The position numbers and the translations under genes were made by a program. From the NCBI GenBank assembly GCA_017499595.2, contig CM039006.1, forward strand, positions 620,001-684,000: a stretch of 64,000 nucleotides of DNA, given 5' to 3'. Shown here one piece after another: positions 6,406 through 60,419 of this stretch; positions within the stretch are counted from its first letter, which is position 1; every line of letters starts with the position of its first letter. This DNA comes from Psilocybe cubensis (lineage: Eukaryota). Below the pieces are notes generated by a model. That model saw only the letters and a program-made list of their open reading frames with translations, made no database searches and was not told the DNA's origin.

Positions 6406-8073
6406 TTAAATCGCAATTTTTGAGGAGAAAACAAAACTGTAAACTGTTTTAAACACAGATGCCAGACACGAGAGGTAGAACCGGGTCTTAGGGAGGATAT
6501 AGGGGTTCAATCTTGACAAGTGTCGGTCCAAGAAGCGGAATGTTTGTAGATGCCAAGGGATGGGTGGGGTCCTGTATGATTTCCAATCTTCTGCAACTTC
6601 TGCAGGAACACGAGCCCATATGTCCCATTCTAAATAGGCCTTATGGGGGCTAATAGCTCCGATGTAATCACGGAGTTCCTCTTCTGGAACTTCCGCTAGA
6701 CGTTCTTCAAAAAATATGAGAGCCTCCGATGCCGTGAATCGTTGACTGATATCCCATGTTGTCATCTTATCGATCAATGGTGCCAGAAAGTGAATCTTCG
6801 CTGCTGCAAGCTAGAGATCAATTTATTGGTTCAACAATCTCATTTAATAATACTCGAAATGAAACGAAACCTACGCCGAAATTCTGAGCAAATTGTACAC
6901 CAAGCCCACCCACATCCAAAGCAAACGGATCATAGTCGTACTCCCCACCTGCTGTATCGTAGCTTAGATTGAACGTGCCCCAGGATTCGTAATGGGGGAG
7001 TCGGCATTCCGTTTTATTCGCTGTAGGCGGAAACATAATCGAGAGATCGTAGTCGCAAAGGGCGTATCGGATTACCCTATTCTCTCGACGCTCTTTACAC
7101 CATACATTTATATCGTTGAAATCTTCATTTGACATGTTGGAAAAATGGCTTAACAACACGTTCTCAAACCTGATGTCCTGGTGTTGGTGTTAGTACATGG
7201 TTCATCCGGATTATCAGAATTGAACAAAACGTACCCCGTGAACGATATTATGTTCGTGAAGATAGCTTAATCCCTATGTTTTATATTAGAAAAATGAATA
7301 AAATGTGGCTGGGATTTAACGCACTTTCAAGCATGAATGCATGATCTCAATGATTTCGAACATATAGGTAAAGGAAGGACGAAAAAGATCCGGCCCCCAT
7401 CTCAAAGTCAAAACCATTCATCAGGTGAGAGTGGGGTATAGGTCAAGGAACAGCCTACCTCGGCATAACAGCAAACCAGAATCCATCATTGGGTAGCAAT
7501 TCCAGGACAGGAAGGATGCAGCTCTTCTTCAAAACCTCGAGGTTCTGCTGGTTCAAAAATCGTAGCACACGGTACTCGTCCGTGTCAGCATGCACAATTT
7601 TAATCGCAACATGTCGCTTATGCGTGTCTTGTGCAAACACAACTTTTCCCTATTTGTTTGGTTTTCGTTAATTGAAAGGCAGCAACACTAGTTGTACTCA
7701 CAGTCGTCTCACAGGCGCCAAGGGGAGGTTGAGGTGGGAAACCCTCCCAGACATTGACCCTAACATCATACGATGAATATGGATACTCGACATCAACAAA
7801 TTCGCTGTCGGACTCCGGGGGGAAGACAGGATACGACGAGTCCGTTGGCAATGTTGCCCCCGTCGAATAGGTAGCGTATCCACGCTGGTACAGAGTGTAT
7901 CCTCGGAGCTTAAACCATTCGATGGTATCAGGGGAGTCCCAGAACTCCCGACGCTCTGGATCGCCAGAACCACCTTGTCCTGCCTTGAAAGAAAATGTGA
8001 CTTTGAGGGGAGGTGACTAACATAATTTAGCAGCTTCAATAGCATACACAGGAAGCAGATTACTTACCTCCAT
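6406..8073 (-). CDS. Fungal protein-kinase-like gene K2, apparently intact
   Basis: Spliced exons: ME/SPPL..FWDSPDTIEWFKLRGYTLY, HVAIKIV, LHEHNIVHG-DIRFENVL, YALCDYDLS, YDPFALDVGGLG, RFTASEAL. Confidence 0.85.
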
Positions 8074-8618
8074 GTTAAACCTCTGTGGAACCTCGTGCAA
8101 TCTAAATTAAAGAGCTAGATGGTCAAATATCGCACAGCTCTTAAGCCGTGTTCGCAAAAGTGGAAGCACAAAGTTTGGTTCAATTGAACTTCGTTGAACT
8201 AACGTTGAACCATTTCCCTCGTGGCTTCGACGTGAGATAATTCCCACATCTCTCAGGTGACTGTGCCTCACCGTACATCACAGGAAAAAATCGTGTAGGG
8301 CCGGACGTCTACGGCATAATATATTACCGACAACTGAGAACATCCACTTTTTTTTTATTGTCGTGCAACAAGCAATCGATGTGCTAAGACGGACGGGTGA
8401 GCGTTTCTCACCTTTCTACGCTAAGGTATCTACTGTCCTAAGAATAGCGGGGTTTGTATATCTATTGGATCAGCTGTAGGTGTTAGTTTGCATTATCGGT
8501 GGTTTGTAGAGAACATCCACTTGGGCTTAGTTACGAGTCCTCCTTTAGGAGGATTCGTTGTGTATCATCGACACCCCGCCAAAATGTTTGCTATACTTAA
8601 TCACTCGTATTTAGCTGA

Positions 8619-9351
8619 TTACAAGTTAAATTCATATTCCATTGCTGCCAGATCCTTGGCCACCGTGTCGATAATATCACGGCGTACCAAGTCTTCGCAC
8701 CATGATTTGACTCGTGTCGTCCAGAACACTCTATCTCCATCTCCTTCCTCTGCTGAATACCAGCAAGCAGCCAGACCTGCGAAGATAGCGCCAACAGTAT
8801 CCGCATCGTCACCAAGGTTCACCGCCAACAATGCACCGTCTTCAAATGTCGATGTGGCAAAAAAGCAGTAGAGCGCAGCTACGGCAGAATCTAGGACGTA
8901 TCCTGTCGAAGGCAGCTGCTTGACTGGAGGGATAGTATAAGCAAAACCCTTTGTCTTCGTGGAAACTGTTCCTGGTCGTTGGGTGTCCGCGATGAGTCGG
9001 AGTAATGGATGGTGCTGCCAATACCAGGCCTCGCGATCGACATCATCTTCAGGAGCAGGACGGATACGAGAGGGAATCGCTAGGGCATCCCGGAGTGTAA
9101 TAGTCTTATAAGGGAAGCTAGAAATGTAGTGAAGTAGGTCAAGTTTTGAGAATCGTTTAGCGGAGGGTTTGGGGGCACGTGTACTCTCCGCCATGATGGT
9201 GGCGATCGCACCGGTCCACATCTCGCACATTTCAAGACACAAGGGACTAGGATGCGTCGCCCGACTGCTCCTTCTTGCGTAGTCCCTTGCTAAAGCTTCA
9301 TCACGCCAGTAGAGAAGACCTATGGGCACGATGCGCATCAAGCTCCCATTG
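8619..9351 (-). pseudogene. 5'-truncated ARH copy
   Basis: Protein-identical to the intact gene from NGSLMR to KDL. It lacks the DALG and TDDT motifs and is fused upstream to unrelated sequence with no in-frame ATG. Confidence 0.85.
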
Positions 9352-9608
9352 ATAGAAAAGTGACGTTCGGCATAGCAGCATAAAAGAAGGTGTTGTCGGA
9401 ATGGCGGTTTGAGGGACAATCAAAGAATTCATAGGACCGAGAGTTGGAGACAGCGATTTGAGGAAAGGTACGGGAAATTTACAGAGTTGAAGGGTGTCTC
9501 TATCAGAAACTTGTTTTAGTGGGCCACCGCGGAGCGTGGCATGACGAGTCTTTACGATTCAGCGTCACGCTTTGTAATAATATAATATATATATAATATA
9601 ATATAAAT

Positions 9609-10583: not shown

Positions 10584-10728
10584 TACATATGTACATAGAA
10601 AGACAAGGATATCATAAATGTGCTGAACGAACAATCAATCCATTTGCGTGAACATTGTAAATAACAAGGAATAATTTGTCAAGTCATTTTCATGACAGAA
10701 ATTATCTGAAGATGTTAGTTGGCACCCC

Positions 10729-10909
10729 ATGGGAGAATCCTGCGTACACTATACGCAGAATATTCCCACACTCGGCTGAATATCGGCGAGGAAGTCTGTG
10801 GGAGAATTCTGCGTACACTGTACGCAGAATATTTCCACACTTGGCTGAATATCGGGAGAGGTTGACCGTGGGAATATTCTGCGTACACTGTACGCAGGAT
10901 ATTCCCACG
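10729..10909. repeat. Three tandem ~69-bp units, each with a 41-bp palindrome
   Basis: GTGGGAATATTCTGCGTACA-C-TGTACGCAGRATATTCCCAC-like units starting at 10729, 10798 and 10868. Confidence 0.95.
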
Positions 10910-12084
10910 CTCATCCGCAAGTCAAACTTACAAATTAAGACAAAAAGAATGAGGACAAGAACACAAGTTTATTTCGAACAAAAATTTGACTAAGGATGGA
11001 AGAAATTACAAATATCCATTCCACAAGAGGCTTTGTGGTTGAGGGCGATGCAACCAAAAAATATCTGCCTTTCTGGATAGCAAATACAAAACAGTTGCAT
11101 GTACACGGTCATCTTTTTGCCTACATTACAGGAATTAAATTGACAAATACTAAAACTAAAGAGCACACACCTTATACCCCTTTCCCAGGATTTGATAGCT
11201 TTTTTGACACGCTTGTGTAATTGGTAAACATCTGCCGCTGTGTAGTGAAAATCTAATGCAATACCGCTGATGCGACGGACACCAAAATGCAAACAATCAA
11301 ATTCATTGAGCAACAATGCCCACAAATTGGCTTCAACAAAGGAAGTCTGATTTGCTTTGGGTAAAAGAGGCAAAGAATAAACCCAACAATGCCTGTCGCC
11401 AACCCGTCTAATCCCAGGAGAGAACAACTCTGGATAAGGATCGTAATCCAGCACAACGAGAACATGACCACGAGATGAACTATACCCAACATTTACGTTG
11501 TCCCTGATAGACTGTATCCTGCTTTGGATATGGCGGTCCATTTTCAAAGTTTGCGATGGAATGGAAAGAACAAATTTCAAGCCACGGGAATGATATTTTG
11601 CAAGAAATTTTTGCGCGCGCTTGAGGTCGGCAGAAGGTTGCAACAGAGAGACTTGATGTCCAAAGGTAGCATTTGGATACAAGCTGTACACCTTCTCAAA
11701 GGTAACAAAATTCATGACGCCGGCTGCAGTAGAACAAAATTGAAGTTAACATTGTTTTGACACATGACATTGGGGACATACTGCTATGATACCCCAAAAT
11801 GCACTCTACCACCGATTGACAAGTCGTAATCAGTTGGACAAAAGAACCTTGGCACCATAGGTTAACGACCACTCCAGTGGTATTGTAATGTCGATGAAGA
11901 GGATGTTTCTGAAGGACGATTTTTTCTATTTTCAAAATTTTTTCCGCTGTGGTGTTGTCCGGATATTTGGGATGCGGCATGATAGTAAATCCAATGGACA
12001 TCATCCAGGAAAGAACGGGAAGAGCATATCTGTGCTCGACATACATGTCCATGTCACCCGGAATCCATATATTAGCACGATTGA

Positions 12085-13524
12085 TTACGAAACTTTATGT
12101 AAGTAAAGTGAGTTCTTTTATCCCCACAACCCACTGTACAAAAATATGTCCTTGCCAATTGTCCCCATCAGTAAATCATTGATGCCATCAAAATTGCGTG
12201 ATTAATACCGGTTTTTTACTTAACCGGTATGCTTGACTTAATAATCGGTTACTATCATAGAATTTCTGTTAGTTTTTGTTCCTACCAAGGGGATATGGAA
12301 ATTAAAATACTAGATATTAGCTAGGTAGATAGGTTAGCTGCCATATGGTAGAAAACAAAATTAGATACCATTACATTATGACTTTTTAATTGCAAGTTAA
12401 ACATTTTGACGCAGATAATCATCGCTCATAACCAAAAACTTTATAATAATGACCTCATTTAACTGATTTAAGGCCATTAATTAGTCAAAATCAATTACAT
12501 ACCAACTGTTTTGCATGCTTTATACACCTCTAACGGCAAGTAGAGGTAAATAGAATGCTTTATTGTTATCAAAAAAAATTTAGCATGAATGACTAGCAGA
12601 CTGTGGTGGCATAGAATAAAGAATAATAAACATTATGTATCTAGCTATTATCTTTAATGCCACTTCAAATAACTTGTCATATTAAACTTGTTGTGCTGTT
12701 CATACTGGCCATAAATTAATAAGCAGACTGTGGGAATAACTTGCATATAGTGTATGCAAGTTATTCTCACGGTTGCCGCACTTTGCATTGAGCAACTTGA
12801 ACTTCTCTGGTAATTCCTGATATATTACTGAGATGCATTGCATATACTTTAGGTAAAATACAAGTATTTTTGGCAATAATAATTATTTTCAGTCCTAGTT
12901 TAGATGATCTTATTATATTTTACTTGCTGTGGTGTTTGTACTGGCCGTGAATTAATAAGCAGGTCGTGGGAATATCCTGCGTACAGTGTGCGCAGGATAT
13001 TCCCACGGTCACTACACTCAATTTGCATTGAGCACTGGCCACTTTGGTCAAGAGATGGTCATTTTGAATAATGTTTTCCATGCATTGAATGTATTTTGGG
13101 GAAGAAATAATGCACTAACACTTGCAAATTATGCTTGAAATATGTTTCCACACAGCCAATTGTGTTCACAGCAACATCAAACTATGCCAAAAAGAAATAT
13201 GCGCACCAAACAAATGTTTTTGCACACAATATTGTTTCACTCTTGATGCACTTTTCAAAAATAAGAAAATTATATTTATGGGAAATATGTCCCCACTTGG
13301 GCAGCCATACACATGAGCATTCTTCCATCAGTTTTCCATACGGGATTCTCCCAGCAGATCTGGAATTCTTCAATATTTAGCAGGTATGAAAATTATAATA
13401 GACAAGTTCTTCCTTACAATTAGGCCTTATAACCTGTGCATAATCTAGATTAAAAAATATTTTATACAATTGTGAGATGTAAAGTCTTGTCATGCCACGC
13501 TTTGCGTTGGACCACTAAAACAAG
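12085..13524 (+). mobile_element. Nested 1,440-bp non-autonomous element of the same family, inverted
   Basis: First ~140 bp are homologous to the outer 5' end. It ends tgtaaagtcttgtcatgccacgc...ccactaaaacaag like the outer 3' end. Excision restores the codons LHFINR. Confidence 0.85.
12730..13007. repeat. Two more copies of the 41-bp palindrome within a ~236-bp tandem duplication
   Basis: Palindromes at 12730-12770 and 12966-13006 with homologous flanks (actggcc..aattaataagcag upstream, tttgcattgagca downstream). Confidence 0.9.
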
Positions 13525-14479
13525 TAAAATGCAAAAAGGTGGAACCTGAAATAACCAGGCCAGTCTTGAACTGGAGAAGACGAAACAGCAAATGTTCATT
13601 GGGTTTGAAGATAGGAGCAAATAAATTTTTGGGACGGAAGGCGCGGCGCATATAGCCCGAAACGCGGTCGTTTAGCTTCTTGCAAGTCCAAGAGAAACGG
13701 TAAAGAGTTTTCAGATCCATCTGATCCATGTACACATCGTCCATGGGAGGCGGAAAGACTCTAAAAAATAAGTAATAACCAAATGAGATAAAACAGTGAA
13801 CATACTGTTGGAAACGCAGTGCGGAGAAAAGTGCATTGTCTATACTACGTCAATAAATATATTAACCGTAAGCCGATAGACGCCCGACGTAGGGGAAGAA
13901 CAAATTGGTATGTGTGAGAAACAATCATGAATCAGAAAATCAAATTCAAATAGTACAGAACGCCCAGAACCCAAGAACGCGTAATTATTTCTATTTGAAC
14001 TCTGATTGATGAAGCTACCGATATCAAGGAACGTGTGTGCCTGCACAGTTCTATTTCCAACCTTTCAGACCCATAGTTCAAAGAGTGCATTTGTTCCATC
14101 TCTAAGTATTAGTACAATATATAAGCACGTTGGCTAGACGGTTCCACATGGTTTTAAAAATTAAACAACAACGCAAAAAAGTGAATTGAGTAGGACTATT
14201 GTTGTTGGGTATAATTAATTTTATGGAAACGCACATTCACATTGCGATCAAAACAAATCAAAAACAACCTTTAAAGTAACCAATGGTAAAAAGAAGTCGT
14301 AGAATGAATTGGAAAGGGGTTGCTTAGGGGGTCCGGTGACCGCTTAAGGAAAATACCGATAGCGGTAACGACATTGATCGCATCAATAATATTTTGATGG
14401 GGACAATTGGCGAGGACATTATTGCTCGCTGGGTTGTGGGGATAAAAGAACTCATCTTTACTTACGTAAAGACTCGTAA

Positions 14480-16574
14480 TAATCAATCGCAAGATAAGTG
14501 CAATACGCACTATGACATTGTGAAGGTGAGAGGCGGAAGGTTTGAGTGCGCTACAGTCGACAGTGGAGAGCGACCAAACGATTTTCCGTGACGTTGAATT
14601 CACCCGGGACTTTCCGTCGCATTGTCGGCCCGTCAATGCCGTCGATCTCGACTCAAACCCAACTCCGAGTCAACTCCCGCCACTCGCCATTGTTGCTTCG
14701 AGTCAGAGATCTGCCTTACATCCATCCCTCTTGATCATGTATACACAGCCTTCGGTATATGAGGTGTCTCTTAGATTGAAAGAATGCATCTTCTGTCTGA
14801 AGTTCATACCTCGCCGACCTTGTACTAAGTTGCAGAACATCCGGTCTTGCGATGTCCTCCGTCAGCCTGCCAACCATATCGCATATCGCAACGTGGAATG
14901 ATAAGTGATAGAACACCTGAGGCAGTTTTCAAGTCAAAAAAAGTAATCATCTTGAATTATTCATCCAAGAGTCATGACCGCCATGGACAGTGAAATTCTC
15001 AGATTGCTTCTTCGGTCCCATTATAGTTTTTCTTACTACATATCTCACGTAAAAGTGCTATTACGTGTATGCTAAGAATAGAGATCATTTTCATCTTTCT
15101 TGTGTGTAAAGTACTTGGATCGTCGTGGATGCGGAATCGTTTCGCCTGAAAATCCAAATCTAGTCATCGGTAAAACCAGGTTTGAAACATGATTCATAGA
15201 ACTCGCGCTGGCTGTCAATGATGGGAACACAACCTTTCTATACAATCGTCCTCTCGGCGGAATAAATCACATATTCGACGGTGAGTGGCACTCTACCATC
15301 TGGAGCTTATAGAGGCACATGTACCCTGAAGTATATTAGTACATGTTCCCAGCCAAAGATGCTCGAAGAAGGGTTCTGTGTATGTGAGGCCCACTGCGGA
15401 GGATTCCAGAGAACACCCTGAGTTTCAACGCCGGGAAGCAAGCTGGAAAATTACAGGTCTTTAGACACTGGGCAGTCTTCTATTGGAAGATACCATTGTC
15501 AAAAAAAATTTGTCTTTCCGGATGCGAAAACTTCTTCTGAATTGAGACAGAAGTTCTTGTGCGACTCCTGAATTGTGGCGGCGGACACGACCAGCTGAGT
15601 GGCTTGCCACTCGAGCGAGGGAAAGATTGTTGTGATTTGACAGATTTTTGATTTAAAACTGCTTCTCGGACTACGTACCGAATTATTCAGGGGTGTGCGG
15701 GCAAGCGGAGTGGTGTTTGTTGGGCTGTCAAGTACATCTCCAGAAGTGCTCCATGGTTGAAGAATACTTCGATATAACCCCGTCGACTTTCGTGTCAAGG
15801 CGTACCTTCTTGTCCGGTTTGGATAATCGATTATACTTTCCAAGGCTAGATTTCCCACAACTACACACAAAAAAACAAGGCTTCTAGTCAGCAGTTGTAA
15901 TCTGATCAGCTACACACACTTAACGAGTGGCGTGTGAAAGTGAATATGGCAGACTTAATGACTCGATTATGTCTAGCAGAGCATTGAAATGTGAAGAGTC
16001 GCAGCATTATCCGCAGTGTTGGGGATAGGTACACGAGGACATGGAAGCTTCGGGGTTTCGGTCCTCAGTTACCCTATCTTCGTTGTTCATTTGTCGGAAG
16101 ATCCAACGGAATCATTACTGCAGATGACTCCCTCATCCCCTCCTTACTAGAGATATCCCATCCAAGGGACGCATAGATCCATATATCCGCCGACTCTTCG
16201 CCGCATAGAATTTCAGCAGACAATACACAACAGTCTATAATGTATAAGCTTCTTTCGCCTTACACATTCCTAGAAGATAACCCTGTCCATCCTGATTAAT
16301 GTCTTTGAAGAAGGGAGAATCTGGCAGTTCTTCCTACATCCGAGTCGTCCTTGAGTCAAAACACCTATGATGTGGATAGATACCAGCCTTACCGCTGTGC
16401 ACTCGGAAGGCGTGTAATATGGTTTGACACGTTTGAGATGCGTTGCAATTAAGCGCAATAGCGAACTTGTCTGCGTTTCCATTTGTTGTCAATTGAGTAG
16501 ATAGTTGATTATAACATTATTCATTGGTTTCGATCTCGTGAGTATACCATCTTCAGTGGCGGGTGCTTAATCAA
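14480..16574. repeat. Segmental duplication copy B (right part)
   Basis: Matches 1388-3402. Confidence 0.95.
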
Positions 16575-19324: not shown

Positions 19325-20949
19325 ATGGTGAGCTTACTTCCACTATATTTATGATTCTGCGTAATGATACAAGTTTCGACAGTCTTCAGGGCTCACGATT
19401 CCCTTTTCATTTGAACATGGCGTTGAAGTCGATGAATTGGAGCGATTTGCTTTCTGGGACTCTCCCGACGTGGTCAAATGGTTCAAGGATCACGGTTATA
19501 CCCTATACAAGCGCAGCGTTTACAGCGGCGAAGAATTAGCCACGTTTCCCATCTTCCCACCAGACCCTCAAAGTGGACCTGTTGAAGCCGATTTCCCATA
19601 TGCTCACCATGATATGGATACGACGGATCTTCCAGAGGTATACCAAACAGACCCACCTCTATCTGGTGTTGATACATCTGTAGGTGGATGTTGTGAACTA
19701 TCATTATAATCTTCTAATATTACATCTCTAGGGAAAAATTCTATATGCTCAGGACTCCCTGAAACGACATGTTGTAATCAAGCTTGTGCCAGACAACACA
19801 GACGAGTATCGAGTGCTGCGGTTTTTGAGCGAGCAAAGTATGGATACGTTGAAGGAGAACTGTGTTATTCCTGTACTGGATCTCCTACCAATAGAGGGGT
19901 TCTGGCTCGCGGTGATGCCAAGGTAAGCTTGGTTTGCTTTAACAACTTTGGTATGTTCTCAAAGTGGCTTGCAGATGGGGCATTGGTATTTATCAGCCAA
20001 ATCCACGGTATGTGTATGAGATTGTCGATATCATTTACTCGAGACTCAAGGTATATTTGAATGATATACTGGTGTCAACCTTGCTAACCTAGCTATACGA
20101 CAGAGTCTAGCCTATCTCCATGATAATAACATCTCGCATGGGGTTAGCTTTAAAGCAATTCAAGCTCAATTTCTGGATTTACTGACATACTTTTGACAGG
20201 ACATTAGGGATGCGAACGTTGTAGTGAACCATTTTGCAGATTCACGATTACTACCGAGAGGGTACCATCGGCGTAGTAAACTGCGCACTGAAAGGCGCCT
20301 GTTGTACGCCCTCATTGACTTTGACTTTTCAGTCATGCTGGCACCAGACGCTGATAGGACTAAATTTCGATTGCCTTACCAACGATTTTTGGGTACAAAC
20401 AACGTAAGTAATGACACGGCTGCTGGGGAACACGATTATAGCCCATTCGTTGGTGATGTGGGGGCTTTGGGTGTTTCATTGTGTTTTGAATATCAGGTAC
20501 ACTATTCTGTGTTTACTTCTATATAGTGCTGGCGCTAAAGAGTATGATTATAGTGCCGCACAAAGTATCTTCCTGTCTTAGCACCTCTGCTAGATATGAT
20601 GACAACCTGGGATCTTAAACGACGGTTTACTGCGGCTGAAGCTTTGAAATTCTTTGAGCAAAGCCTTTCCGAGATGACGCAGAAGGAGCTAGAAGTTGAA
20701 ATTTCCGGAAGTATCCATTACGAAAATTACTCGACTTATAACAGGTGGCAGCAGATGCATCCAGCCTTGATGGAAAAGTGGAAGGTGTATAGGACGCCGC
20801 CCATTCCCTGGCATCTGAAAACCCTTCGTGCCATATACGGACGCTCAGCAGAATATAATCTCCACATCATACCTCAGACCCGGCGATTTTTTGCGGGGGT
20901 TATGTCCATGGCATTCAAACTTTACTGCAAGCTCCTATTCTGGGCGTAA
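19325..20949 (+). CDS. Fungal protein-kinase-like gene K3, apparently intact
   Basis: ATG-only first exon; FWDSPDVVKWFKDHGYTLY, HVVIKLV, LHDNNISHG-DIRDANV, YALIDFDFS, YSPFVGDVGALG, RFTAAEAL. Confidence 0.85.
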
Positions 20950-21309: not shown

Positions 21310-21870
21310 CTCAACCAATTTCCCCATCGCATACCGCAGACACGACGGAATTACCTTTTCTACGGTGCCTGATGCAGACAGGGATGCTCAACGGGAATTT
21401 TGGAGTTCTTCAACGACTTTGGAATGGTTCAAGCATCGTGGCTATAAGCTTTATCGCTCTATTGACGAAACCGATAAAATCTATCCAATGCACCCACCTG
21501 AATGCTTTGAAGACTCTGAATTCTCCTTTTACTTGGCTTATTATTCATTCTTACGCTTCCTTCGAGACTCTGAAAGATAATGATATGCACCCACTTGAGG
21601 ATGACAACATCCGGGTGAGTATTTATTAACAGATATTATTACATTCGCAGCCAATATCACAAATACGATGATTACGACCGATGGAAGACGCTTTCTCCCG
21701 ACTTTGTGGAGAAATGGAAAGTATATAAAGCTCGAAAGGTACCGTTACGGATTCGCCTCCTCCGTTGGCTATATTTCAAGCCATACTTCTGCCATATTAT
21801 ACCTAAAACTAGACTCTTCTTTAACAAACTTTCCTATCTTCCTCGTGTAATCGTAGGAATGTTCCTGTAG
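21310..21870 (+). pseudogene. Kinase K4 remnant with the catalytic core deleted
   Basis: An N-terminal exon (EFWSSSTTLEWFKHRGYKLY, frameshifted) is joined within its intron to 21664-21870, which is near-identical to 833-1039. Confidence 0.85.
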
Positions 21871-21917
21871 ACAAATGCTCCTTAACACACTTGATATGAT
21901 CAATAGTATGTAGCTGA

Positions 21918-23174
21918 TTACGAGCCAACTTTATCTTTCATTGCTGACAGATCCTTGGCCACCGTGTCGATAATATCACGGCGTACCAAGTCTTCGCACC
22001 ATGATTTGACTCGTGTCGTCCAGAACACTCTATCTCCATCTCCTTCCTCTGCTGAATACCAGCAAGCAGCCAGACCTGCGAAGATAGCGCCAACAGTATC
22101 CGCATCGTCACCAAGGTTCACCGCCAACAATGCACCGTCTTCAAATGTCGATGTGGCAAAAAAGCAGTAGAGCGCAGCTACAGCAGAATCTAGGACGTAT
22201 CCGGTCGAAGGCAGCTGCTTGACCGGAGGGATAGTATAAGCAAAACCCTTTGTCTTCGTGGAAACTGTTCCTGGTCGTTGGGTGTCCGCGATGAGTCGGA
22301 GTAATGGATGGTGCTGCCAATACCAGGCCTCGCGATCGACATCATCTTCAGGAGCAGGACGGATACGAGAAGGAATCGCTAGGGCATCCCGGAGTGTAAT
22401 CGTCTTATAAGGGAAGCTAGAAATGTAGTGAAGGAGGTCAAGTTTTGAGAATCGTTTAGCGGAGGGTTTGGGGGCACGTGTACTCTCCGCCATGATGGTG
22501 GCGATCGCACCGGTCCACATCTCGCACATTTCAAGACACAAGGGACTAGGATGCGTCGCCCGACTGCTCCTTCTTGCGTAGTCCCTTGCTAAAGCTTCAT
22601 CACGCCAGTAGAGAAGACCTATGGGTACGATGCGCATCAAGCTCCCATTGCCAGAGAAGTTGACGCTCGACAAGTTGCTCTGAATGCGATCAAGCGCTTC
22701 TTCAGGTTTCGATGACTCATAGATATATAGTGCTTTATTGATAGTTGCCCCGACGTCAAAGCAGCTCCCGATCGCTGATAGATGGCCTTCGTTACGCCAT
22801 CGATTATAGAGTTCAAGTTGATGCAGTTCGTCGAATCCACCTTTCTCGGATGACTGGGTTGGTGGCTGGTAGGTGGTCAAAGATTCTGCAAGACAGAGTG
22901 TCATGGAGGTGTCGTCTGTCCATACCCCAGCGGGGAGGCCAAAAGTTTTATTGGGCTTCATGGTATCGATGAAGGGGAATGAGAACCGGCCGCGGAATTC
23001 AGCAGGGCCACCGAGTGCATCGACGAGTGCGGTGGCAAGGATGGTTAACTGAATTTTGGTAGCTGAGGACGCATGTGTTGGGTACTGTGTGCGGAGCGAT
23101 CCAATGTTTGGCGTGTCTGGTTGCAATTGGACGCCCGACACACTCTCAGCGTCATTCTTTCCAAAAGGTGCCAT
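21918..23174 (-). CDS. ADP-ribosylglycohydrolase (ARH/DraG family), intronless, 418 aa
   Basis: Motifs DALG, WTDDT, GNGSLMR, SRATHP and NLGDDADT. Confidence 0.93.
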   Translation of the reverse strand: MAPFGKNDAESVSGVQLQPDTPNIGSLRTQYPTHASSATKIQLTILATALVDALGGPAEFRGRFSFPFIDTMKPNKTFGLPAGVWTDDTSMTLCLAESLTTYQPPTQSSEKGGFDELHQLELYNRWRNEGHLSAIGSCFDVGATINKALYIYESSKPEEALDRIQSNLSSVNFSGNGSLMRIVPIGLLYWRDEALARDYARRSSRATHPSPLCLEMCEMWTGAIATIMAESTRAPKPSAKRFSKLDLLHYISSFPYKTITLRDALAIPSRIRPAPEDDVDREAWYWQHHPLLRLIADTQRPGTVSTKTKGFAYTIPPVKQLPSTGYVLDSAVAALYCFFATSTFEDGALLAVNLGDDADTVGAIFAGLAACWYSAEEGDGDRVFWTTRVKSWCEDLVRRDIIDTVAKDLSAMKDKVGS

Positions 23175-23797
23175 GGATAGCCAATCTCTTGCGGGTCAAA
23201 TAGAAGCGTAGTCTGAGCGTTATGTGTTAGGTTTGTGGTCCTTTTAAGTGGCAATTGTTTGGGGCGCTCGTACAGCCTTCAACTTTCATAAAATGCTGTG
23301 CATTTGGGCGGAAGTGCACGGTGTCAAACCATGGCACCATACACTGATACCGCTGCCAAGGCACACGCAGCTGTGCTCTGTAGCAATCGATTTATTGCTC
23401 GCAGTGCGTCTGCACTTAGTTTGGTGATGTTAACCTGGACCTCGTATGAAAGCAGTGAATTGAAGGGATTGCTATGAGAATAGAGATGTTATGGTTGGTA
23501 TAAGTTGTGTCCATCCGAAAACCAAGGCCCAGAATCACAACACAGGCACAGGGAACATGGTATCCAGCGCGTAAGATATAAGACGTCCCACTAGATGCGG
23601 TCAAGAGACGATAAAGAGAGATGATGTAGCGGATTTCACCCTCACGATGCAAGCATGCAGGATAACGAAGGGATCGGTGGCTCTCCGCAAGAAATCTTCA
23701 CAGGTTCAACTTCCTAAAAGACTTTCCAGTCATCTAAATCTATCAAAAGGAAAATAATTAGCATTTTGAATGGCAATAAAATGTATGATGAGAAAGG

Positions 23798-23889
23798 TCA
23801 GGATAACTAGGATTTATTCGGGTGCACATTGCGCAACGTTTTGATTTTAAACGGCGTTCGCTCGAATTCATATGACATGAATTCATCAC
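23798..23889 (-). ncRNA. Candidate intronic box C/D snoRNA-like RNA, copy 1
   Basis: GTGATGA...CTGA inside predicted intron 23924-23740; nearly identical to 55076-55166 while the flanks are diverged. Confidence 0.6.
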
Positions 23890-24412
23890 ATAGCGAAGGG
23901 ATCAGAAAGGAACAACGAACTCACCATGGGATTGCAGAGATCAGATTGCAATTGTATTGAACAGCAGCGTAGCAGAGAGACCCGTCTGGATCACCTTGAA
24001 TCCGAGACCGCAATGAAATGTCATGGAATGGGGACCAGAGCCAGACTCGATAGATAAACCAGAGCCAAAACAATATCCGTTACCGACAAGGAAGGAAAGG
24101 AAAGGAAGCAGTACGTTTATGTGAGCTGGGTCTCATCGAGGTCGGGGGTACACGGGAAGATAAGAGATGACATGGCATGATGGCATCTTTGCCGTCTTTG
24201 TTTGCCATACGCCGGTGAACCAAGCTCGGCATCATCCGAAACCTTGTCATAATGGCCTCGCTGCGAACTTAAACTTGCTGGCTACCTTTGTACTCGAAAT
24301 CAGATTTTACTTTCATCCTTTGATAAACGGTTGCAAATCTCGTGAATGGATCTATATCCCCGGTGGCGGGATGTTTTTAAGATTCCATTTCTCCCATCCT
24401 CCACCAGTTTCA

Positions 24413-25894
24413 ATGAGTCTTTGGTACATGACGGAACCGACCACGACAAAGGAATATTGGAGGCATCATATAAAGGTACGCATTCTGGAAATCGACTATC
24501 GTTCCTACTTCTCTTCTGACCGTTTTAAATAATTTTTGCGCCAGTCGCTATTAATACCCAAGTTTCGATAATTCAGGTGTACACTTCATTGTAGGTCATT
24601 GCGTTCACTATCGATCTTGGATACACTCACATACGTCGAATCTAGTCATTCGCTCATTTCCAAACGTTTAAGTGGACAGGTACCACTACTTGAAATACAC
24701 TCGTCTGATACATCATTTCTTGTTTATTCAATCGGTTTACTTCCATGTCTGGTCATACCACTGAACACACGCCTGAATGGGATTTCGTGAGGGACTTGGA
24801 CAACCCTTCAAATTTTACATCTACTTCGATAATATCATTGTCGGAGAACAGAGCAAGGATTAATGAATGTGACGATGTATGCCCGATAATCCGTTCATGG
24901 AGCTCTGACTGACCAAGGAATACTTAGAGTTGGCTGGCTGAGCAATCTTCTGGACCGCCCGGTAAGATTACAAACGACTATGACAAGTTCACCTTTAACG
25001 AGAATCTAGATGTACCCACTTTCACCCCTGCCGCTCAAAAAGTTAGTAAAGTTAAGATATTGTTTCATTTTACTGAATCCTGAACTACATTATCCCAGGT
25101 TCTCAAGGCGCTCAGTTCCAGACTATATAACATTGCAGTTCATGTAGTAGACAACGTAATTCAGACAGCACAGTCGGATGCTATCGAATACAACCGTACA
25201 GTAATCAGCGCAAATGATCTTACATTTCCTGAGTTTGGTGGGTCATTTTACATGTCGCTAAACGTCAACTTATGACTAATTTTTGAATGCTAGACTTTCG
25301 CATAACGAACATCAATGCCGACAGCATTGAGGCGTCGTACAAGATGCACGGATACCCCTGTTTCGGTAGTTCTAATGGTATGATGCTGATTTACTGACTA
25401 TATCGATCTCTGAGCGCTTCGATAGGCAACCCGACTCAGGATACGCAAGCATCTGTGAACGTCGAAGATTCTGACAAGCAGTCATCCGCAAAGTCGACTA
25501 TAGATAGACCGACAAAGGATCTTCCAAAGTCGATGACAAAAAAACGGACTCTCCCCGCGTCGTTTGAGTCTGTGTCTTCCTATTCGATGTACCTTCCGTC
25601 GGGTTCAAAGAATGAAGTATCTTCCTCACAAAAATCGTCCTCTTTACATTGGAAGAGCGAGAGAAAAAGGCAAAAACTTGCATATGTCCAGAGAAGGTAT
25701 GGCATAGATTTATCTCCCACTTTATATCTAATATCAGTATCTCAAATTTACTGAATTCTCAGGCTATAACTCAAGCCCATGCTCTTGACGGGCATTTCGA
25801 CTCTATCAAGAGTAGCTTCAAGTTCTTCCTCTGCCCCCCTGGAAAAAGGCTAGAGTTGAATTTTACGTCAATAGTAGGATTTCCTGAACAGTAG
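24413..25894 (+). CDS. Hypothetical multi-exon protein with a histone-fold-like segment; boundaries uncertain
   Basis: Spliced exons FTPAAQK/VLKALSSRLYNIAVHVVDNVIQTAQSDAIEYNRTVISANDL followed by a Ser/Lys-rich tail with an NLS-like ERKRQK. Confidence 0.5.
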
Positions 25895-26080: not shown

Positions 26081-26154
26081 TCAAGTTCTTATTTCGTGTG
26101 TCACGAAGTTGCATTCGTCACAGCGGTTCTTTCTTTTTGATTCTATAGAGCAGG

Positions 26155-29100
26155 ATGTCTTTCTCTGTCCCGACGTCGCCTGCAATGTCCCGCTCGAATA
26201 AAGCGCAGCCAGTAACACCTCAGCGACTACCTCGGCAGCAACCTCGTTCCCAGTCCTACTACAGGTCACCACTTACGCCCTCAGCAAGTCCTTACACTCC
26301 GATTAGCCTCCGTTCTTTGGATTCAACAAGCTCATCTACCTTGACCACCCCCGACAACATTGGCAGCGGTCTCAAGAAACGCTTAGCGTTTTCTGCTGGA
26401 TCTCCTGATGTTCTGCGCAACATCAATTCTAGCCAGGACAAGAGTCTGGCTGATATCGCCGAGAACTGGCGATCTCGCGCTAGTGAGAATGGTATCAAAG
26501 TCGCGCCCGCGCCTCAAGACGAATCCCAGTTCGGTGCAGACGAATGTAAGCTTCGTATATGCGCTTCAAATTCCATATTTTGCCACTAACGATGCGCATA
26601 TAGCCAGTGACATGTCAATGTCCGACGTCGTCAACGATCACAGCATTCTTTCCTCGGAAGAAGGTTCGTGCATAAGCGCCAATTTACGACACTGTACTGA
26701 CTCTCTACTAGCCCTTCTAGCCGCTCCATTTCTTACCACCCACAGAAGGCTGAACAGCTTGCCCGCCATAAGACCTAGGGCGCAATCGCACGCGTCTCTG
26801 CCCTCTTCTCGCATGAACCCTTTGTCTCCTGTAACCTCGCGTATCAATAATCGCATAATTCCGACATCGTCCCCCTTGCAACCTCGTCGGGTGCCAGTAT
26901 CGATGAACCAGAATATCATGTCTACGCCTCCCCCTAATCGCATTTTGGCGAGACAATTGAAGTTGAAAGGGAGTCACACGGATCCTGCACAACCTAGAAG
27001 GCGCGAAGCCTTTGGAGCGGTACGTTTTAACTTATATCTCAGGTTTCATTGTCTAATCTGTGCTTCAGGCTCCTACGCCTTCACGCAGCATTGGTCACAA
27101 AAATGCCAGCTTGAGTCTTACCCTGGAACCTGACACATCCCTTGACTTGTTTGATATCGATGAAAACGACTACGAGGCCGAGCAAGAGTACCAAGACGAG
27201 ATCGAGAATTCCTTCTCTCGTGATTTACAAGCCCTTCAAAACAGTAACTATGGCTATCCCTCCTTTGGTTTACAGCAGCAGCAACCTCAAGTTTTCGGAC
27301 AGTCACACTTTGCCGATCCTTTCCAACCAATCAGCAACGGCAATGGATTCGTGAAAGGCCACATGCTGAATGGCATTCCAGAGGGCATCGAACACCAATT
27401 CCATGCCGTCCGTCAACCCAATCCTCAGAAACAATATTACGACGACCACCGCCAAAGTGGTCATGTATTTTACAATCTACTTCCACAACATCAGCCTCAA
27501 TACAATCCAGCCATGCCTCATCCTTACGCTGCACCTAATTATGTCCCTATGTCGCAGCCATCTCTACTCCCTTTCCAACATTCATCCACTCCCGCAACGG
27601 GTTTCTCTGACCATTCTACCCCGGCTATGATGTCCAAAATTCATTCGCCACCCCATGTCCCTGATGTTTCCCCAACCGACTGCTCTGTTTGTCTTGCTTC
27701 AAAGCCTGCATCTCTTGCTATTTTACAGCCATGCAAGCACCCCCTTTGTTCCGCTTGTCTCACGAGTGCGCTCAATATTGTCGGGGAGAAAGACATGGAG
27801 TGCGCTGTGTGCAAGCAAAGCGTTGCCGACTTCAAACTGGTTATGGGTGCGTCAGCTTCATCACCAGGTAAGATCAATATCCCTGTTGAACCAATCAAAA
27901 CCTCTGGAGAGCCTATTGGTTCATTTGCCTCTACATTGGATAACTCAAACATCTTCGACGATGGGGCGATGGAGGATATAGAAGAGTTACAGAGCGCATT
28001 TGAATTTGGACTTGACTTTGGGGACCTTCGCGCCTCCACCCCCAAGCTCGAACAACAGGTCGAAGATCGCTCCATCGATGGCAGATCCCAGCACTCTGTT
28101 TCTCAACTCGGATCTAGAAGAGACGTTAGGAAGGGCGAGGACAACGTAGTTCTCCGTATTGATAACGTTCCTTGGGTAAGTATTACTTCCCTTGTCAGGC
28201 GCAATGGCTAATTTTTTTTTTTTTTTAGGATATCACACCTTTACAGATCACCAAATGGCTTCAACAGCCAATCGAGCGAGTGCATGTCCTTCTCGACGGG
28301 AAGGGCAAGACTCTTAGCCATGCTTATGTGGAAGTTCGCGATGCGACTACCGCTGGTGCTATTTTGAGAGGAGAAGCTGCTTCGCCTAACTCTTCTGGCA
28401 AGAAGGAAAGAGGAAGTGTTCTCGGCAGGGGAAGAAGGGCTCGCGGCGTGACAGTTACCAGGAGTGGGCAACAGGAATTAATGAGAGACGTATGTGATAT
28501 CCAATCTGTAACTATGGTTCGCACCATTTACACCGTGTTTGACAGCTCTTTCCTCATTGGCGTGGAGGTTTCGATGGTTCTCGCCCTTCTCTCGCTGGTT
28601 TGGAAGGAGACAGGATCATTGGAGCCCTTGAGGGCGGCCTCTTGACTGAGCAAGAGATATCTGGGTTGCTCTATCTGATCCGAGAACCTGACGTCAGTCT
28701 TTTCATACCCTCATGAGGATGCGTTCGCTGATTTTTGCCTTTGCAGTCGCACTTCCTTAAAGTGCCTTCGCTGCCGTTCCATTCTCTTGCAAGCATCTTA
28801 AGCAAGTTTCCCGCCGATGTTGATAGCCGTGTGTTCTGGTCAACTGGTATCAGAGACGTACTGCTAGGTATGTTCTACAGCTAGCACTTTTGAATTCTTG
28901 CTAATCGTGCATAATAACTTGTTTTAGACGCTACATATAGTAAGTTTTATTTTTACTTTATTTCGTGCACTGTCTGACCATGTGCTGTAGCTGCTCTTCA
29001 AACTCTTATTCCTCGTGTGGAAAAGGCTACCGAAAAGGCGAAGTCTTCTGGACAACCTGAAGAAGAATTTACCATGGATTTAGTCATCAACCTCCTCCAT

Positions 29101-34514: not shown

Positions 34515-36678
34515 TCAGGATCCTCCGCCCCAGGCACTCACAAAACCAAGCCTGCTCCGCCCCGAACCCGTGTTCGCGTTTCCTCGAGAGTTGTCAAAAA
34601 ACCCAATAAACGACTCGACATCATCATCTTCAGTCGATCCCCTCCTCCCCTGGCCTCCCCTTCGCGAACCAGCCCAACTACCGCCCCATTCTTCGGAAAA
34701 CTCGCCATCCCAATCGTCCTCCTCTGCTTGGATTGTAGATTTGCGCCTCAGCAAGCTCGGCGTTCGACTACTGACCAGGTTTGCTGACGATCCACGTCTA
34801 CCTCCTGCTGCAGCAGAAGCAAAGTTCTTCATCAAAGACTGTTGCGCACTAGCCTGTGAAGCGAGATGTTTGCGGAGGCTCTTGATCGAGTTCTGGCGCT
34901 TTGGAGGGACGAGAAGCCGTGCTAGATCGAGCTCTCCTTCATCTTCGTCATCGGAACTCACACCCACACCATCTGACTCGCCGTCAGCTTCTCCCCACCT
35001 TTCCGGAGCCATCGACCCAGCGCCGTGCTTATACCCGCTTCTCGTCCGCGACCACATATCACCCTCCACCTGCGTTCTGGCGAGACTAGGGAGACGATCG
35101 CACTCATTCTTCTTCTTCCTGCCCCTGCCCCTCTCATATCCAAGTTGCCACCTCTCTTTACCCCTTTCACCACGCACGACGGACCCCGACCGGCTCGACG
35201 GCGCACTGCGACACATTACACGGGCGACGGACACCTCGCCCTCGCTCCGGCCTGCCCTACCACGCTCGATCATAGAAAATAACAAAGGCGGGGGCGGCGC
35301 GAGAAGCCCTGTCGTGTTTGTCTGGTCAGAGAGCCTGCTGCGAGACGCCACAGGCCGCTTTGCTGGACGCCGCACTGGTGCCTGTGACAGTGAGCTGCGA
35401 GTCTGGCGGAGCACAGGTGTTTTTCCAGTCCGTGTCTTGGACACGTGCGGCGACGGATCATGCAAATTATGCTGCGACGGACCGCCAATGTACGCTCCGC
35501 CGCCCCCAAAAAGTACAGCGCGCGCTACAGTCTCGAGCCATGTGGGTGGGAGCGGCGGCTCCCCGTGACCCTCCTCCTCCCCTTCGCCATTACCCCGGCG
35601 GTTATACGCCACTCCAGGGTCCTCGGAGTCGCCTTCGTGTGAGTGCATCGTGTTTCTGTTGAACAAGTGGACCGGCGTCGAATTGGGTCTTCCCGGCATG
35701 CTTTGCGTCGAGGCCATGTGTCTGAGATATGCCCCAGCGCGAGACGGCCGCGGAGAGGCTATGCCCATCGAATTTTCGCCGGGGCCTGGAAAGGCATGGT
35801 TTGTCTGGCGATTTACAGAGGTCCGTGATGACTGGCGCGGGATCAGAGATGATTGATGGGCAGGGGGACTGGTCTGTGGGTGGGTAGTGGTGGGATTTGG
35901 TTTGCTTGCCCAGGAGTTTTTTGGGCGAATGAGACGCGGAGTGGGCTCTCCAAAGCTTTCATTGGATGAGGCCGTCGATGGTTCAGTCAGATCGAGACTT
36001 GGTCTTCCTCCCTGTCCGAAGGAGCGCCGCTTCGCAAGGGGTGATGTAGGCGGCGAATACTCTCGTGGCGACGCCGTCAGCTGATTTTCTCCCTCGGTAG
36101 TCGTTAGATTGGTTCTGCTAGCAGCAGCGCTTGGCAACAACCCCGCAAAAAAGCCAACGACAGCCTCCATGCCATCCTTGACGACACTAGTTCTGTTGTC
36201 GTCTCCTGCTTTCGTCGAGTCCCCTCCATCTCTCCTGTGATCCATGCGCTCTGCCTCTGGTGTGAAAATTCGAGTCTCCTTGTATCCCGCCTCCTTCAAC
36301 AGATCCTCGAGCCGCTCGTATGTCTTAGATGTGCCCCGTCGGTGCAAAGGCACCCGGCGCAGATCAGCGGGGTACCGCGGCCTGGCAATCACACGGGGCG
36401 GCGTTGTTGGCTCGGGAGGCGAGCTGGACGAATTCGAGGCTGAGTTTGAGGCTGATTGAGCGAGCCCGGGCGATGTTGTATCCGTGGGCGATGGTAAAGA
36501 GGGTTTTACGCCGTAGTTCGTCTGTAACACAATCAATCGACCAACACCCAATCGCATCGTCATTTTCCGATGCATTAAACAAAGGCAACTAGAGGCTTAC
36601 CCTTTCTCGTGTAGAGTTTTCGGTGTGTCCAGTGCTGCGTCCCCTGTAAGAATCGGACCTCACGGGCGCGTCAGACAT
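34515..36678 (-). CDS. Hypothetical low-complexity Ser/Pro/Arg/Gly-rich protein
   Basis: A 2-kb open exon plus a short upstream exon (MSDAPVRSD...RER) joined by a GT-AG intron. Confidence 0.8.
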
Positions 36679-53869: not shown

Positions 53870-55075
53870 GATGGATGTAGAAGATGAAGAATTTGGGTAT
53901 GCAATGAGAAGTGAGTGGGATTTCCACCGATTACTGGTGTTTATATATCTATTTCTCCACCCATGTGATGAACGTGGAATCTCGAACTTGGAAGGATATG
54001 TTCATGACGCTTGAGTATTGACACGTGCTTTTCATTCTTCTTTAAGAAAATCAGTGATATCTTATTTAGATTTAAGGTATACTAGAAAAGGTTCGTCATA
54101 TAAATAACGGCTGTTCTATGAGCCAAGTGTTACTCAGCAGCAACTTGGTACTAAGTGATAAACTGACTAATGATACGCAAGGATGGGAATACCCAATGAC
54201 TAAACATAGGCATTAAGATGCATATGACTCGAGCAAGTCTTCCTCATGAGTCATTAAAAAAAGTCTCGTCAATCCCAGGGGGTGTTAAATTGCGGTGTCC
54301 GCGGTACCAGGCTCCTATAAAGCCCCTATTTGTATGCGGCATAGTGGCCCGGTTCCGGCCCAACGGAAAGCACAGATTTGAGAGGTTGATCTATCACATC
54401 TCGCATACCTACATTGAGATAGAACGCAGAAGTATATCTTATTCTGTTGAACAGATGATACTGACTCAAGAAAACACCTTTGCTCACCCTGACACGTCGC
54501 GACGCGTACGCTTCATGTCTCAGTCACGATCACGTGAATAGGGGCCCGGGCACGCGACTTCAAAACCAACAACAATTTCGAGCAACAGTAAATCTTTTAG
54601 TTTTAGGGAGTACCAGGCGGTGTAGTGTGCATTATTTATTGCTCCCCAGAATCCGTAATATGGAAGTCAAAAACATTTTCGATTGACTCCGAGTTCGACC
54701 TGCCTATCGACACCAGTCGACACCCCATGCGAATTTGATACACCGTGAGAAAGTCACCCAAGTGTGGTTCGGGGCTGAATGCCAAACAAAAACAATTCAA
54801 TCAAAGGAGTGGCATCTTATCTTCCCGTGTACACCCGACCTCAATGAGATTCAGCTCACATCCGCGTACTGTTCCCTTCATATTCTTTTTCTGCAACGGA
54901 AATCGTTTGGCTCTGGTTTATCTATCGAGTCTTGCCCAGTCCAACAACGCTATTCCAGTGACACTTCATCAGGTTCTCCAATTTCAAGTTGATTCCGACA
55001 AACCAATGAGAATTGATGTCTGAGCTCTGCATGAATATGGTGGGTTCGTTGTTCCTTTCTCACCCCCTACTACAT

Positions 55076-55166
55076 GTGATGAATTCATGTCATATGAATT
55101 CGAGCGAACGCCGTTTAGTATCAAATGTTGCGCAATGTGCATCCGAATAAATCCTAGTTATCCTGA
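55076..55166 (+). ncRNA. Candidate intronic box C/D snoRNA-like RNA, copy 2
   Basis: GTGATGA...CTGA inside predicted intron 55040-55228, with box D 62 nt upstream of the 3' splice site. Confidence 0.6.
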
Positions 55167-56006
55167 CCTTCTCTTGTCAATGATTTTTGTTTTCATTTCG
55201 CACAGGCTGATTACTTCCCTTTTGATAGATCTCAAAGACCTGACAGTCTTTTTGGATATCGTAAGTTGAATCTGTGAAGCTTTCTTGCGGAGTAGCCTTA
55301 AATCTGGACTGTTCGCGCCTCTCGAGCTTTGTGCCTTGCCGTTCATTGTCATGCATTGTTTCACTGTGAGGTTTCAATCCACGTACATCGACCTTTCTTC
55401 ATCGTCCGTTGACCGCATCAAGCGGGGACATCTTATATCTTGCCCTACTCAACCGTCTTTAGGGGACAAACTTGTGCTGTCCCAAGGGAGACCTCGATGA
55501 CCTGGACAACGACATCCCCAGGATTCACATCATACGACATGGACGAGGGAAACGACAACAAACGAGTCTGTCGTTGCAATCTTAAGGTAATCGGAGGGTA
55601 GAGGAAGGGCAGAGAATCATCTCGTGAGCAGCTACATGTACGATTGTGCAACATCTGCTTTGACTGGACGCCACCGTTTTATCAAAACAGCAGAAAAACA
55701 TTGCCTCATTTCTGGAGAATATTTGCTTTTGTGGTGAAATTTTCAACTTTGTTTGTTGTAGCCCACGGCCTGGTTGTTATCTTTGTGCTTCCATTTTTAA
55801 CTAATTATCATTTGCGTGGTACTTAATATAAATGCTTTCATAGCTCAAAATGAGGATCAACACCAACTAGCTCAGTCCATTGGCGCTTCGACGACGTCCT
55901 TCCCCACCAACGGTGGAACTTCCATTTATAAAATTGTTGAAGGCATCAAACTGTGCTTGAACATATGTACACACTCCGGAAATCGAAATCCAGCATTGAT
56001 TTGTCT

Positions 56007-58785: not shown

Positions 58786-60419
58786 ATGGTAAGTTGAACT
58801 TTGATGACAGTCTTTCTGTTCTGATTCGACAGTCATCAGAGATGGACATACTCCACATACCCTTCTACTTTGAACCAGGCCTGGGGTTATATGATATGGA
58901 GAAACGGTTTACATTTTGGGCGTCCCCAGAAGTTCGAGAATGGTTCAAAGCCCGCGGATACACCCTGTATGAGCGTTGCTGGGAAGAGGATATGATACTC
59001 GATACATCCATACCAGCTATTCCCCCCCAGACTGATTGCGGTGAAGCCGAGTATCCTTACGCATACTTTGACACAGATTCTGAAGAACCCGAAGAGCCCA
59101 AGATGCCGCTCCGGTCAAGGGACATGACCGTAAGTCGTTGCTCGCTCAAACTACGCAAGCAAAAACAACCAACTGGTTTCTAAAGGGTAAGGCCGGGTTT
59201 GCGCAAGATGCGTTAGGCCGACATGTTGCAATCAAGATTGTGCGTGCGGACACCGACGAATATCGCATTTTGCGGTTTTTACATGAACAAAGTCTGGACA
59301 CACTCAAGGAAAATAGCATAATCCCTGTTCTGGAACTAATACCAAACGGAGCCTTCTGGTTTGCGGTCATGCCTCGGTAAGAAATTGCTAATTTACGTGT
59401 TCATCTCAGTACTAATTATTATCGAAAAGATGGGCTTTGTATATTGATACACCTGAGCCTGTGTACATCCATGAAGTTGTTTTTATCGTACATTCTCTGC
59501 TCAAAGTATGACTCTTACTTCGGTCATTCGTATACCTAATTCGTTTTATAGGGTCTTCATTATTTGCATGCTAATAACATCGTCCACGGGGTTTGGTTCT
59601 CCTTAATTCACCGTTATACATCTTGTTAATGGTTGTATCCTTGTGTAGGACATTTGCTCTGGAAATTTTCTCGTAAATCACATCACCGATGACTGGATAG
59701 GGATACCCAGGCGCGGTCACCTACGCGCTGAGAAGCGCCTGTTGTATGCCTTGTTTGACTTCGACCTTTCCATTATACCTCCATCTGGAACCGGCTTCCA
59801 GCTGACAGATCCTACGGCTCGTTTAACCTGAGCAATGATACTTCGGCCGGAGAATTCGACTACAACCCTTTCGTACTTGATGTCGGTGGTATGGGTGTCT
59901 TTTTTTGTAGGAAGTATCAGGTGAGCGTGTTACCTCGTCCTTATCCCATTTCTAACATAGATTTTTTAGCACATCACCGACCGACTTCCAATTCTTGCAC
60001 CACTTCTCGATATGATGACCCACAGAAACCTTAAACGCCGATTCACCGCAGACGAGGCATTGCTATTTTTTGAGGACCGTGCTGCAGAACTTTCGGAGGC
60101 GGAATTGGCAGCTGCAATTCGCCCAACGAAAGACAGAGAGGCCGGCATAAAATATGATAATTATGATAGATGGGAGGACCTCCCACCATTATTCGTGGAT
60201 AGATGGAAAAAGTATAGAGCAACGCCTGTGCCTTGGTACACAAGATTGCTTCGCCGATTCTGCGCAACAGAATTTGGGGAACGTTATGTGCCAAAAGTGC
60301 GTTATTTTATGTTTAGACTTTGGTCTATTCCATCCACATTCTTCAAGAGACTTCTTCCAGGAAAAATTGCTCTTAAAGTAGTGTTTATTGTAGATGTCAT
60401 TGCTATTAGACATAATTGA
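58786..60419 (+). pseudogene. Fungal protein-kinase-like gene K5 with a frameshift near 59790
   Basis: Same exon layout as K3. After DFDLSIIPPSGT the frame hits TGA, and RLPADRSYGSFNLSND continues in another frame. Confidence 0.75.

Follow-up and report, generated by a model that had tools for sequence, protein, structure and literature searches.

A duplicated, probable intronic box C/D snoRNA of Psilocybe cubensis with a predicted 18S rRNA target at A1229

The window analyzed here, a stretch of 64,000 nucleotides of Psilocybe cubensis (GenBank assembly GCA_017499595.2, contig CM039006.1, positions 620,001 to 684,000), contains two copies, A and B, of an element that is most probably a single-guide intronic box C/D snoRNA with a predicted target at A1229 of 18S rRNA, duplicated together with its host; both the RNA and the methyl group are predictions. 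Assignment to this class, already made in the first-pass annotation, is supported by splicing of the copy A intron, by intronic homologues, and by low copy number, with no sign of a high-copy repeat. The element appears to represent a new snoRNA family whose kind is ordinary and whose single 18S target is apparently unlisted; no new mechanism is suggested. For basidiomycetes, snoRNA inventories have relied largely on homology to families of ascomycetes, with seven found in Pleurotus through Rfam (PMC5040776), an approach by which lineage-specific guides are missed. The present family yields a precise prediction: A1229 of 18S rRNA, in the small-subunit head, should carry a 2'-O-methyl group, where S. 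pombe has an unmodified G. Rfam would gain a family, and the origin of new rRNA marks a test case. Feature coordinates are given in Table 1.

Table 1. Features of the two snoRNA copies, their hosts and the neighboring gene (window coordinates)
Feature	Position	Strand	Remarks
Box C/D snoRNA copy A	23798..23889	-	92 nt including both boxes
Box C (GTGATGA), copy A	23883..23889	-	
Hairpin over D' spacer, copy A	23864..23884	-	Shares final GA with box C; retained in L026, disrupted in most homologues
Candidate box D' (GCGA), copy A	23858..23861	-	Degenerate; putative assignment
Stem-loop between D' and C' candidates, copy A	23831..23857	-	Variable length
Candidate box C' (AATGTG), copy A	23825..23830	-	Degenerate; putative assignment
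D guide, copy A	23803..23814	-	12/12 complement of own 18S 1226-1237; D+5 nucleotide opposite A1229
Box D (CTGA), copy A	23798..23801	-	
Box C/D snoRNA copy B	55076..55166	+	91 nt; C 55076-55082, D' 55104-55107, C' 55134-55139, D 55163-55166
D guide, copy B	55150..55161	+	Same 12 nt as copy A
Whole duplicated host unit B	54815..55441	+	
Host intron A	23740..23924	-	185 nt, GT-AG (GTGAGT, GCTAAT, TAG); branch site 23762-23757; spliced in X1 and X2
Predicted host intron B	55040..55228	+	189 nt (GTGGGT, GCTGAT, TAG); branch site 55206-55211; from motifs only
Host exon 1 of A	23925..24147	-	As far as RNA contigs extend; homology with B continues to 24165
27-nt exonic block	24043..24069	-	Identical in A and B; exon 1; not seen in homologous loci
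Host exon 2 of A	23571..23739	-	Part common to copy B
ADP-ribosylglycohydrolase ORF	21918..23174	-	Intronless, 418 aa (PF03747, E 1.8e-53); syntenic neighbor of the snoRNA

In both copies, a box C (RUGAUGA) lies close to the 5' end and a box D (CUGA) close to the 3' end, spaced within the range of 60 to 150 nt, and directly before box D is an antisense element that falls within 10 to 21 nt and is complementary at 12 of 12 positions to the species' own 18S rRNA. The C' and D' boxes are represented by degenerate candidates around a stem whose covariation was equalled or exceeded in 130 of 500 shuffles. This stem can be folded between D' and C' in all 13 copies, with covariation not above that of shuffles, and the RNAalifold consensus fold selected another small helix and did not recover it. 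A terminal stem is absent. The internal hairpin described in the first-pass annotation is present, yet the RNAs fold no better than shuffled sequences (z = -1.09 and -0.16), and the hairpin was rejected as a family feature, being broken in most homologues. The conserved block reported upstream is indeed identical in both copies and lies in exon 1; it is likewise not a family feature. At 27 nt, it is slightly longer than expected by chance (P = 0.018). It was rejected as an rRNA or snRNA guide, as its best duplex (-23.0 kcal/mol) was equalled or bettered by 8 of 15 shuffles, and no H/ACA-like fold was evident by eye in exon 1.

Potential targets were taken from the species' own genome and comprised one rDNA unit (rRNA and spacers), U2, and U6. 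A 12-nt stretch, separated from box D by one base, is a perfect Watson-Crick complement of 18S 1226-1237, and the earlier suggestion of an orphan guide is not supported. When the 20 nt before box D were shuffled, a complement of at least 12 nt arose in 13 of 20,000 cases. Four of the 501 CTGA sites in the window are preceded by a complement of at least 12 nt: two are copies A and B, and the others lack a box C within 130 nt. The guide word has 12 matches in the genome, comprising three in rDNA, the two copies, and seven without boxes. For the D' spacer of A and B, no conserved target was found (rank 164 of 282 windows; shuffle P of about 0.6). Elsewhere in the window, positions 20337-20354 (plus strand) hold a 14-nt complement of 18S rRNA (from 559) before a CTGA, with no box C within 130 nt, which is probably due to chance.

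Under the D+5 rule, the methylated base pairs with the fifth nucleotide before box D (PMC2780460), which, applied to the 12-nt guide, gives Am1229 of 18S rRNA as the predicted target. The D guide would thus direct 2'-O-methylation of A1229, a step that is probable to the degree that the explanation as a whole is. The m1acp3-modified uridine lies at 18S 1196 in P. cubensis and 1208 in S. pombe and at 1191 in budding yeast; by these offsets, A1229 corresponds to S. pombe G1241 and budding-yeast A1224. The predicted site would fall in the helix 33 region in the head of the small subunit. In Arabidopsis, positions 1219 and 1261-1263, which are placed in helix 33, bracket it (PMC8351944).

The proposed pathway begins with transcription of the host and removal of the 185-nt intron, both seen in contigs for copy A only. 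As in other members of the class, the debranched intron would be trimmed to ~90 nt and protected by Snu13, Nop56, Nop58, and fibrillarin bound to boxes C and D. The D guide would then pair with pre-18S 1226-1237, its computed complement, before helix 33 folds, and fibrillarin would 2'-O-methylate A1229 if the D+5 rule applies. Some snoRNAs, such as snR190 and U8, are of the chaperone type, and the snoRNP could instead assist folding of helix 33 through 18S 1226-1237, with methylation partial or lacking. The duplex would form on the 5' side of the helix 33 region, and the equivalent position is unmodified in S. pombe and plants, as this reading would lead one to expect. The geometry, however, is exactly that of a methylation guide, with 12 to 14 bp that stop 1 nt short of a perfect box D, and no second conserved antisense element was found; a chaperone role is considered unlikely.

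Among own rRNA, spacers, U2, and U6, the 18S site formed the best duplex for all six intact copies tested (-15.3 to -17.9 kcal/mol, against -13.0 to -14.9 kcal/mol for the next best), with a small margin for copy A (-15.3 versus -13.0 kcal/mol). It is quite improbable, more so than a chaperone role, that the true or an additional target is a weaker one, at 25S 2545-2554, 25S 2829-2839, or 18S 142-150 or in tRNA, U1, U4, U5, or mRNA. Duplexes of 9 to 11 bp with one or two G-U pairs do exist, but all alternatives among own rRNA, spacers, U2, and U6 are shorter or weaker, and that at 25S 2545 would have G-U pairing at +5. The 25S 2829 and 18S 142 sites require a C just before box D, where 7 of the 11 homologues have C and 4 have A; this base is unpaired at the 18S 1226-1237 site either way.

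As the first-pass annotation stated, both copies sit in GT-AG introns of 185 to 189 nt with a branch site. Five sequencing runs are listed, none of them recorded as RNA; two from the same study were guessed to be RNA, and three were mapped on 23000-24800. Runs X1 and X2 each yielded one contig, starting at 24147 or 24138, in which precisely 23740-23924 is missing (CT..AC, corresponding to minus-strand GT-AG) and 23739 is joined to 23925; DNA-like X3 carries unspliced DNA. The snoRNA of copy A is, on this support, encoded wholly inside a spliced intron, the RNA label of the runs being guessed and the contigs coming from one study; lack of splicing, named at the outset as an argument against the snoRNA, does not hold for this copy. 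That of copy B is placed in an intron predicted by motif. The lack of cover over the intron in X1 and X2 is uninformative on a small RNA. A candidate first intron beginning with GTACTG at 24114 was discarded, as these contigs do not splice it.

The spliced flanks had been described as encoding just MI* or MISKT*, which holds for the junction ATG; in copy B, two additional ATGs are in frame (12 aa). The longest ORF of B, with the predicted intron removed, is 59 aa. A short exon-1 peptide common to both was rejected (18 aa in A and 59 aa in B, with frames diverging after six codons). The host is likely noncoding, as first proposed, for copy B and most homologues, and this is uncertain for copy A. 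Its spliced contigs continue to 23000, the edge of the mapped stretch, and are there already 174 nt inside the 418-aa ADP-ribosylglycohydrolase ORF. The joined leader up to this ORF is 788 nt long, with 11 upstream ATGs and a longest leader ORF of 37 aa. A contig across two genes is not proof of a single transcript, so host A is either a noncoding RNA abutting the 418-aa gene or its long 5' leader, which it may be. Unit B has an aldo-keto reductase piece in divergent orientation on one side and, on the other, a convergent gene that is P450-like by its motifs. Partial copies of the ADP-ribosylglycohydrolase gene, 92 to 98% identical to 21648-22672, occur in an earlier duplicated block of the window (8600-9372, 1115-1387, and 817-1114), where the frame 8622-9419 still matches PF03747.

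Homologues were sought in one metagenome scan with a pattern of box C, a 52- to 82-nt gap, the guide, and box D, so that boxes and guide are conserved by construction; scoring was against P. cubensis RNAs. Of the 16 loci obtained, ten were kept; they contain 11 credible copies and, in L023, one decayed copy as well. Outside the pattern, a splice donor lies 26 to 46 nt upstream of box C in every one of the 11 homologues, and a branch site and AG lie 50 to 65 nt downstream of box D in 9 of 11. A core of NYGA/GCTA, stem, and NATGTG is also shared. The base 5' of the guide, likewise outside the pattern, is T in nine and C in two homologues, either of which could pair with G1238, and is A in both window copies, with no extension to G1238. 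No compensatory guide change was seen among the homologues. The remaining loci (L016, L017, L024, L025, L029, and L030) were dropped as chance matches, scoring 14.5 to 20.2 bits versus 51 to 79 for kept loci, a partly circular comparison, as the model was built from the latter; none of the six has both donor and branch-AG context.

Some of these loci show individual features. L020 (2426-2725, minus strand) carries two diverged snoRNA copies in consecutive introns of one host. The tandem second copy of L023 (1171-1257, plus strand) has a damaged guide, no branch site, and no 18S duplex and is a decaying duplicate. In L021, a long near-perfect hairpin (2063-2121) lies ~120 nt upstream of the snoRNA; its matches to miRNA models are weak and below threshold. 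Dropped locus L030 has faint look-alikes of the internal motifs at 2501-2575, on a contig of 28% GC, and could be a distant member.

An ADP-ribosylglycohydrolase gene, 41 to 68% identical in matched parts, adjoins the snoRNA in 5 of the 10 loci, in tandem (L015, L022, and L028), convergent (L020), or divergent (L026) orientation, and these mixed orientations indicate that the linkage is positional. Together with the spliced A contigs that run into the ORF, this recurrence could be taken to mean that the intron serves mainly ADP-ribosylglycohydrolase expression through the 788-nt leader, the RNA being a passenger or a cis element. Such a role is very unlikely: besides the variable orientation, the gap to the gene is 1.7 to 2.4 kb in the tandem loci, copy B has no such gene, and the contig over two genes shows no single transcript. 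Moreover, the proposal concerns the host and not the guide match. Other window neighbors recur in L019 and L028; two conserved window ORFs with no Pfam match, 34518-36596 (minus strand) and 26149-27130 (plus strand), are also snoRNA neighbors in these loci.

The two copies of the methylation-guide candidate are inverted, 31 kb apart, and alignable over ~600 bp (23573-24165 versus 54815-55441), somewhat beyond the ~500 bp noted before. From GTGATGA to CTGA, 87 of 92 columns are identical, in agreement with the five or so differences first counted. Ungapped identity is 96% in the element (87/91) versus 74% in the flanks (352/478; Fisher P = 5e-7), with an edge less sharp than the claim that conservation starts and stops at the boxes, as flanking 20-nt bins at 23700, 23900, 24040, and 24140 are identical at 18 or 19 of 20 positions (90 to 95%). 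A DNA search of the 46.6-Mb genome returned three pieces, all at A and B, so that only two copies exist and the high-copy transposon fragment contemplated in the first-pass annotation does not apply. Recent duplication of the snoRNA along with the whole host unit is proposed as part of the best explanation. A functionless chance remnant of local duplication or of a transposon, for which the many other duplications in the window might speak, is largely refuted by the two-copy count, the splicing seen for copy A, and the intronic homologues; the excess identity of the element and the presence of homologues beside genes with only 41 to 60% protein identity also speak against it.

These other duplications include a direct one of 1.9 kb with 93% identity (1386-3302 and 14478-16387) and a three-copy family with 68 to 72% identity (7452-7652, 19729-19929, and 59184-59381). 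Short tandem and inverted repeats occur at 10727-10912 and 12673-13034, with 47-nt arms near 10863-10913 and 12965-13011.

Comparison with Rfam 15, recommended at the outset, gave no family: there was no match at the gathering threshold in the window and only chance-level matches around A, B, and the 11 metagenome loci. The site equivalent to A1229 is, to our knowledge, absent from budding-yeast and human marks. In the S. pombe mass-spectrometry table, only pseudouridine 1231 lies between 1208 and Um1248, and G1241 is unmodified; the plant lists consulted pass from Cm1219 to Um1235 with nothing at the equivalent site. Um1227 is the sole mark of this stretch in the N. crassa table, and none of the guides in Table 1 and supplement 1 of that study targets the equivalent site (PMC2780460). 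No literature naming the predicted site or a mushroom guide was found, and such a family may be included in fungal snoRNAome supplements.

The nearest guide family described so far comprises N. crassa CD44, S. pombe snR82, plant snoR14, and human SNORD110 (18S Um1227, Um1248, Um1235, and Um1288, respectively), whose common target equals U1236 of P. cubensis and lies inside the A/B duplex. These RNAs use a D' guide in a register 7 nt downstream, whereas copies A and B use a D guide for A1229. Descent from the CD44/snR82 family is possible. A tentative and rather doubtful extension is that a guide switch is part-way complete, the family deriving from an ancient Um1231 guide (yeast numbering) with a decaying D' guide and a newer D guide at A1224; mushroom-type fungi would then have traded a widely shared 18S methylation for a mark of their own seven bases upstream, in a part of helix 33 that varies between lineages, which is equally doubtful. 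The D' spacer of L021 can form 10 bp (two G-U) with 18S 1234-1243, placing D'+5 on U1236 (shuffle P = 0.02), and that of L022 can form 8+4 bp (P = 0.036); with 2 of 13 tests under 0.05, these values are not significant after correction. Only L021 fits the register of a D' guide with D'+5 on U1231 (yeast numbering), and A and B fail; RF00610 has no match in either copy. A nonexhaustive search of the genome for a separate Um1236 guide found none among 46 non-rDNA matches to an 11-nt pattern, 22 matches to two looser patterns, or matches to RF00610. Sixteen of the 46 share one context, that of a dispersed repeat family (e.g., L036, L039, L044, and L045) carrying an 11-nt 18S-complementary word.

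The 25S G2815 guides snR38, SNORD1, and N. crassa CD23 have in common with A and B a short guide-like word beside a CUGA box. Relative to box D, the word is placed 3 nt differently, so that the D+5 base would not be that G, and the 5' guide bases of A and B do not pair at 25S G2815. A close parallel is with fungal intronic box C/D guides in noncoding hosts, described for N. crassa and S. pombe, which are alike in size, in boxes C and D, in having one snoRNA per intron, in a 10- to 21-bp guide, in the D+5 rule, and, probably for copy B, in hosts with short ORFs only (PMC2780460). In the same source, the usual distance from donor to box C in N. crassa is 41 to 60 nt, and the 35 to 36 nt found here are slightly less.
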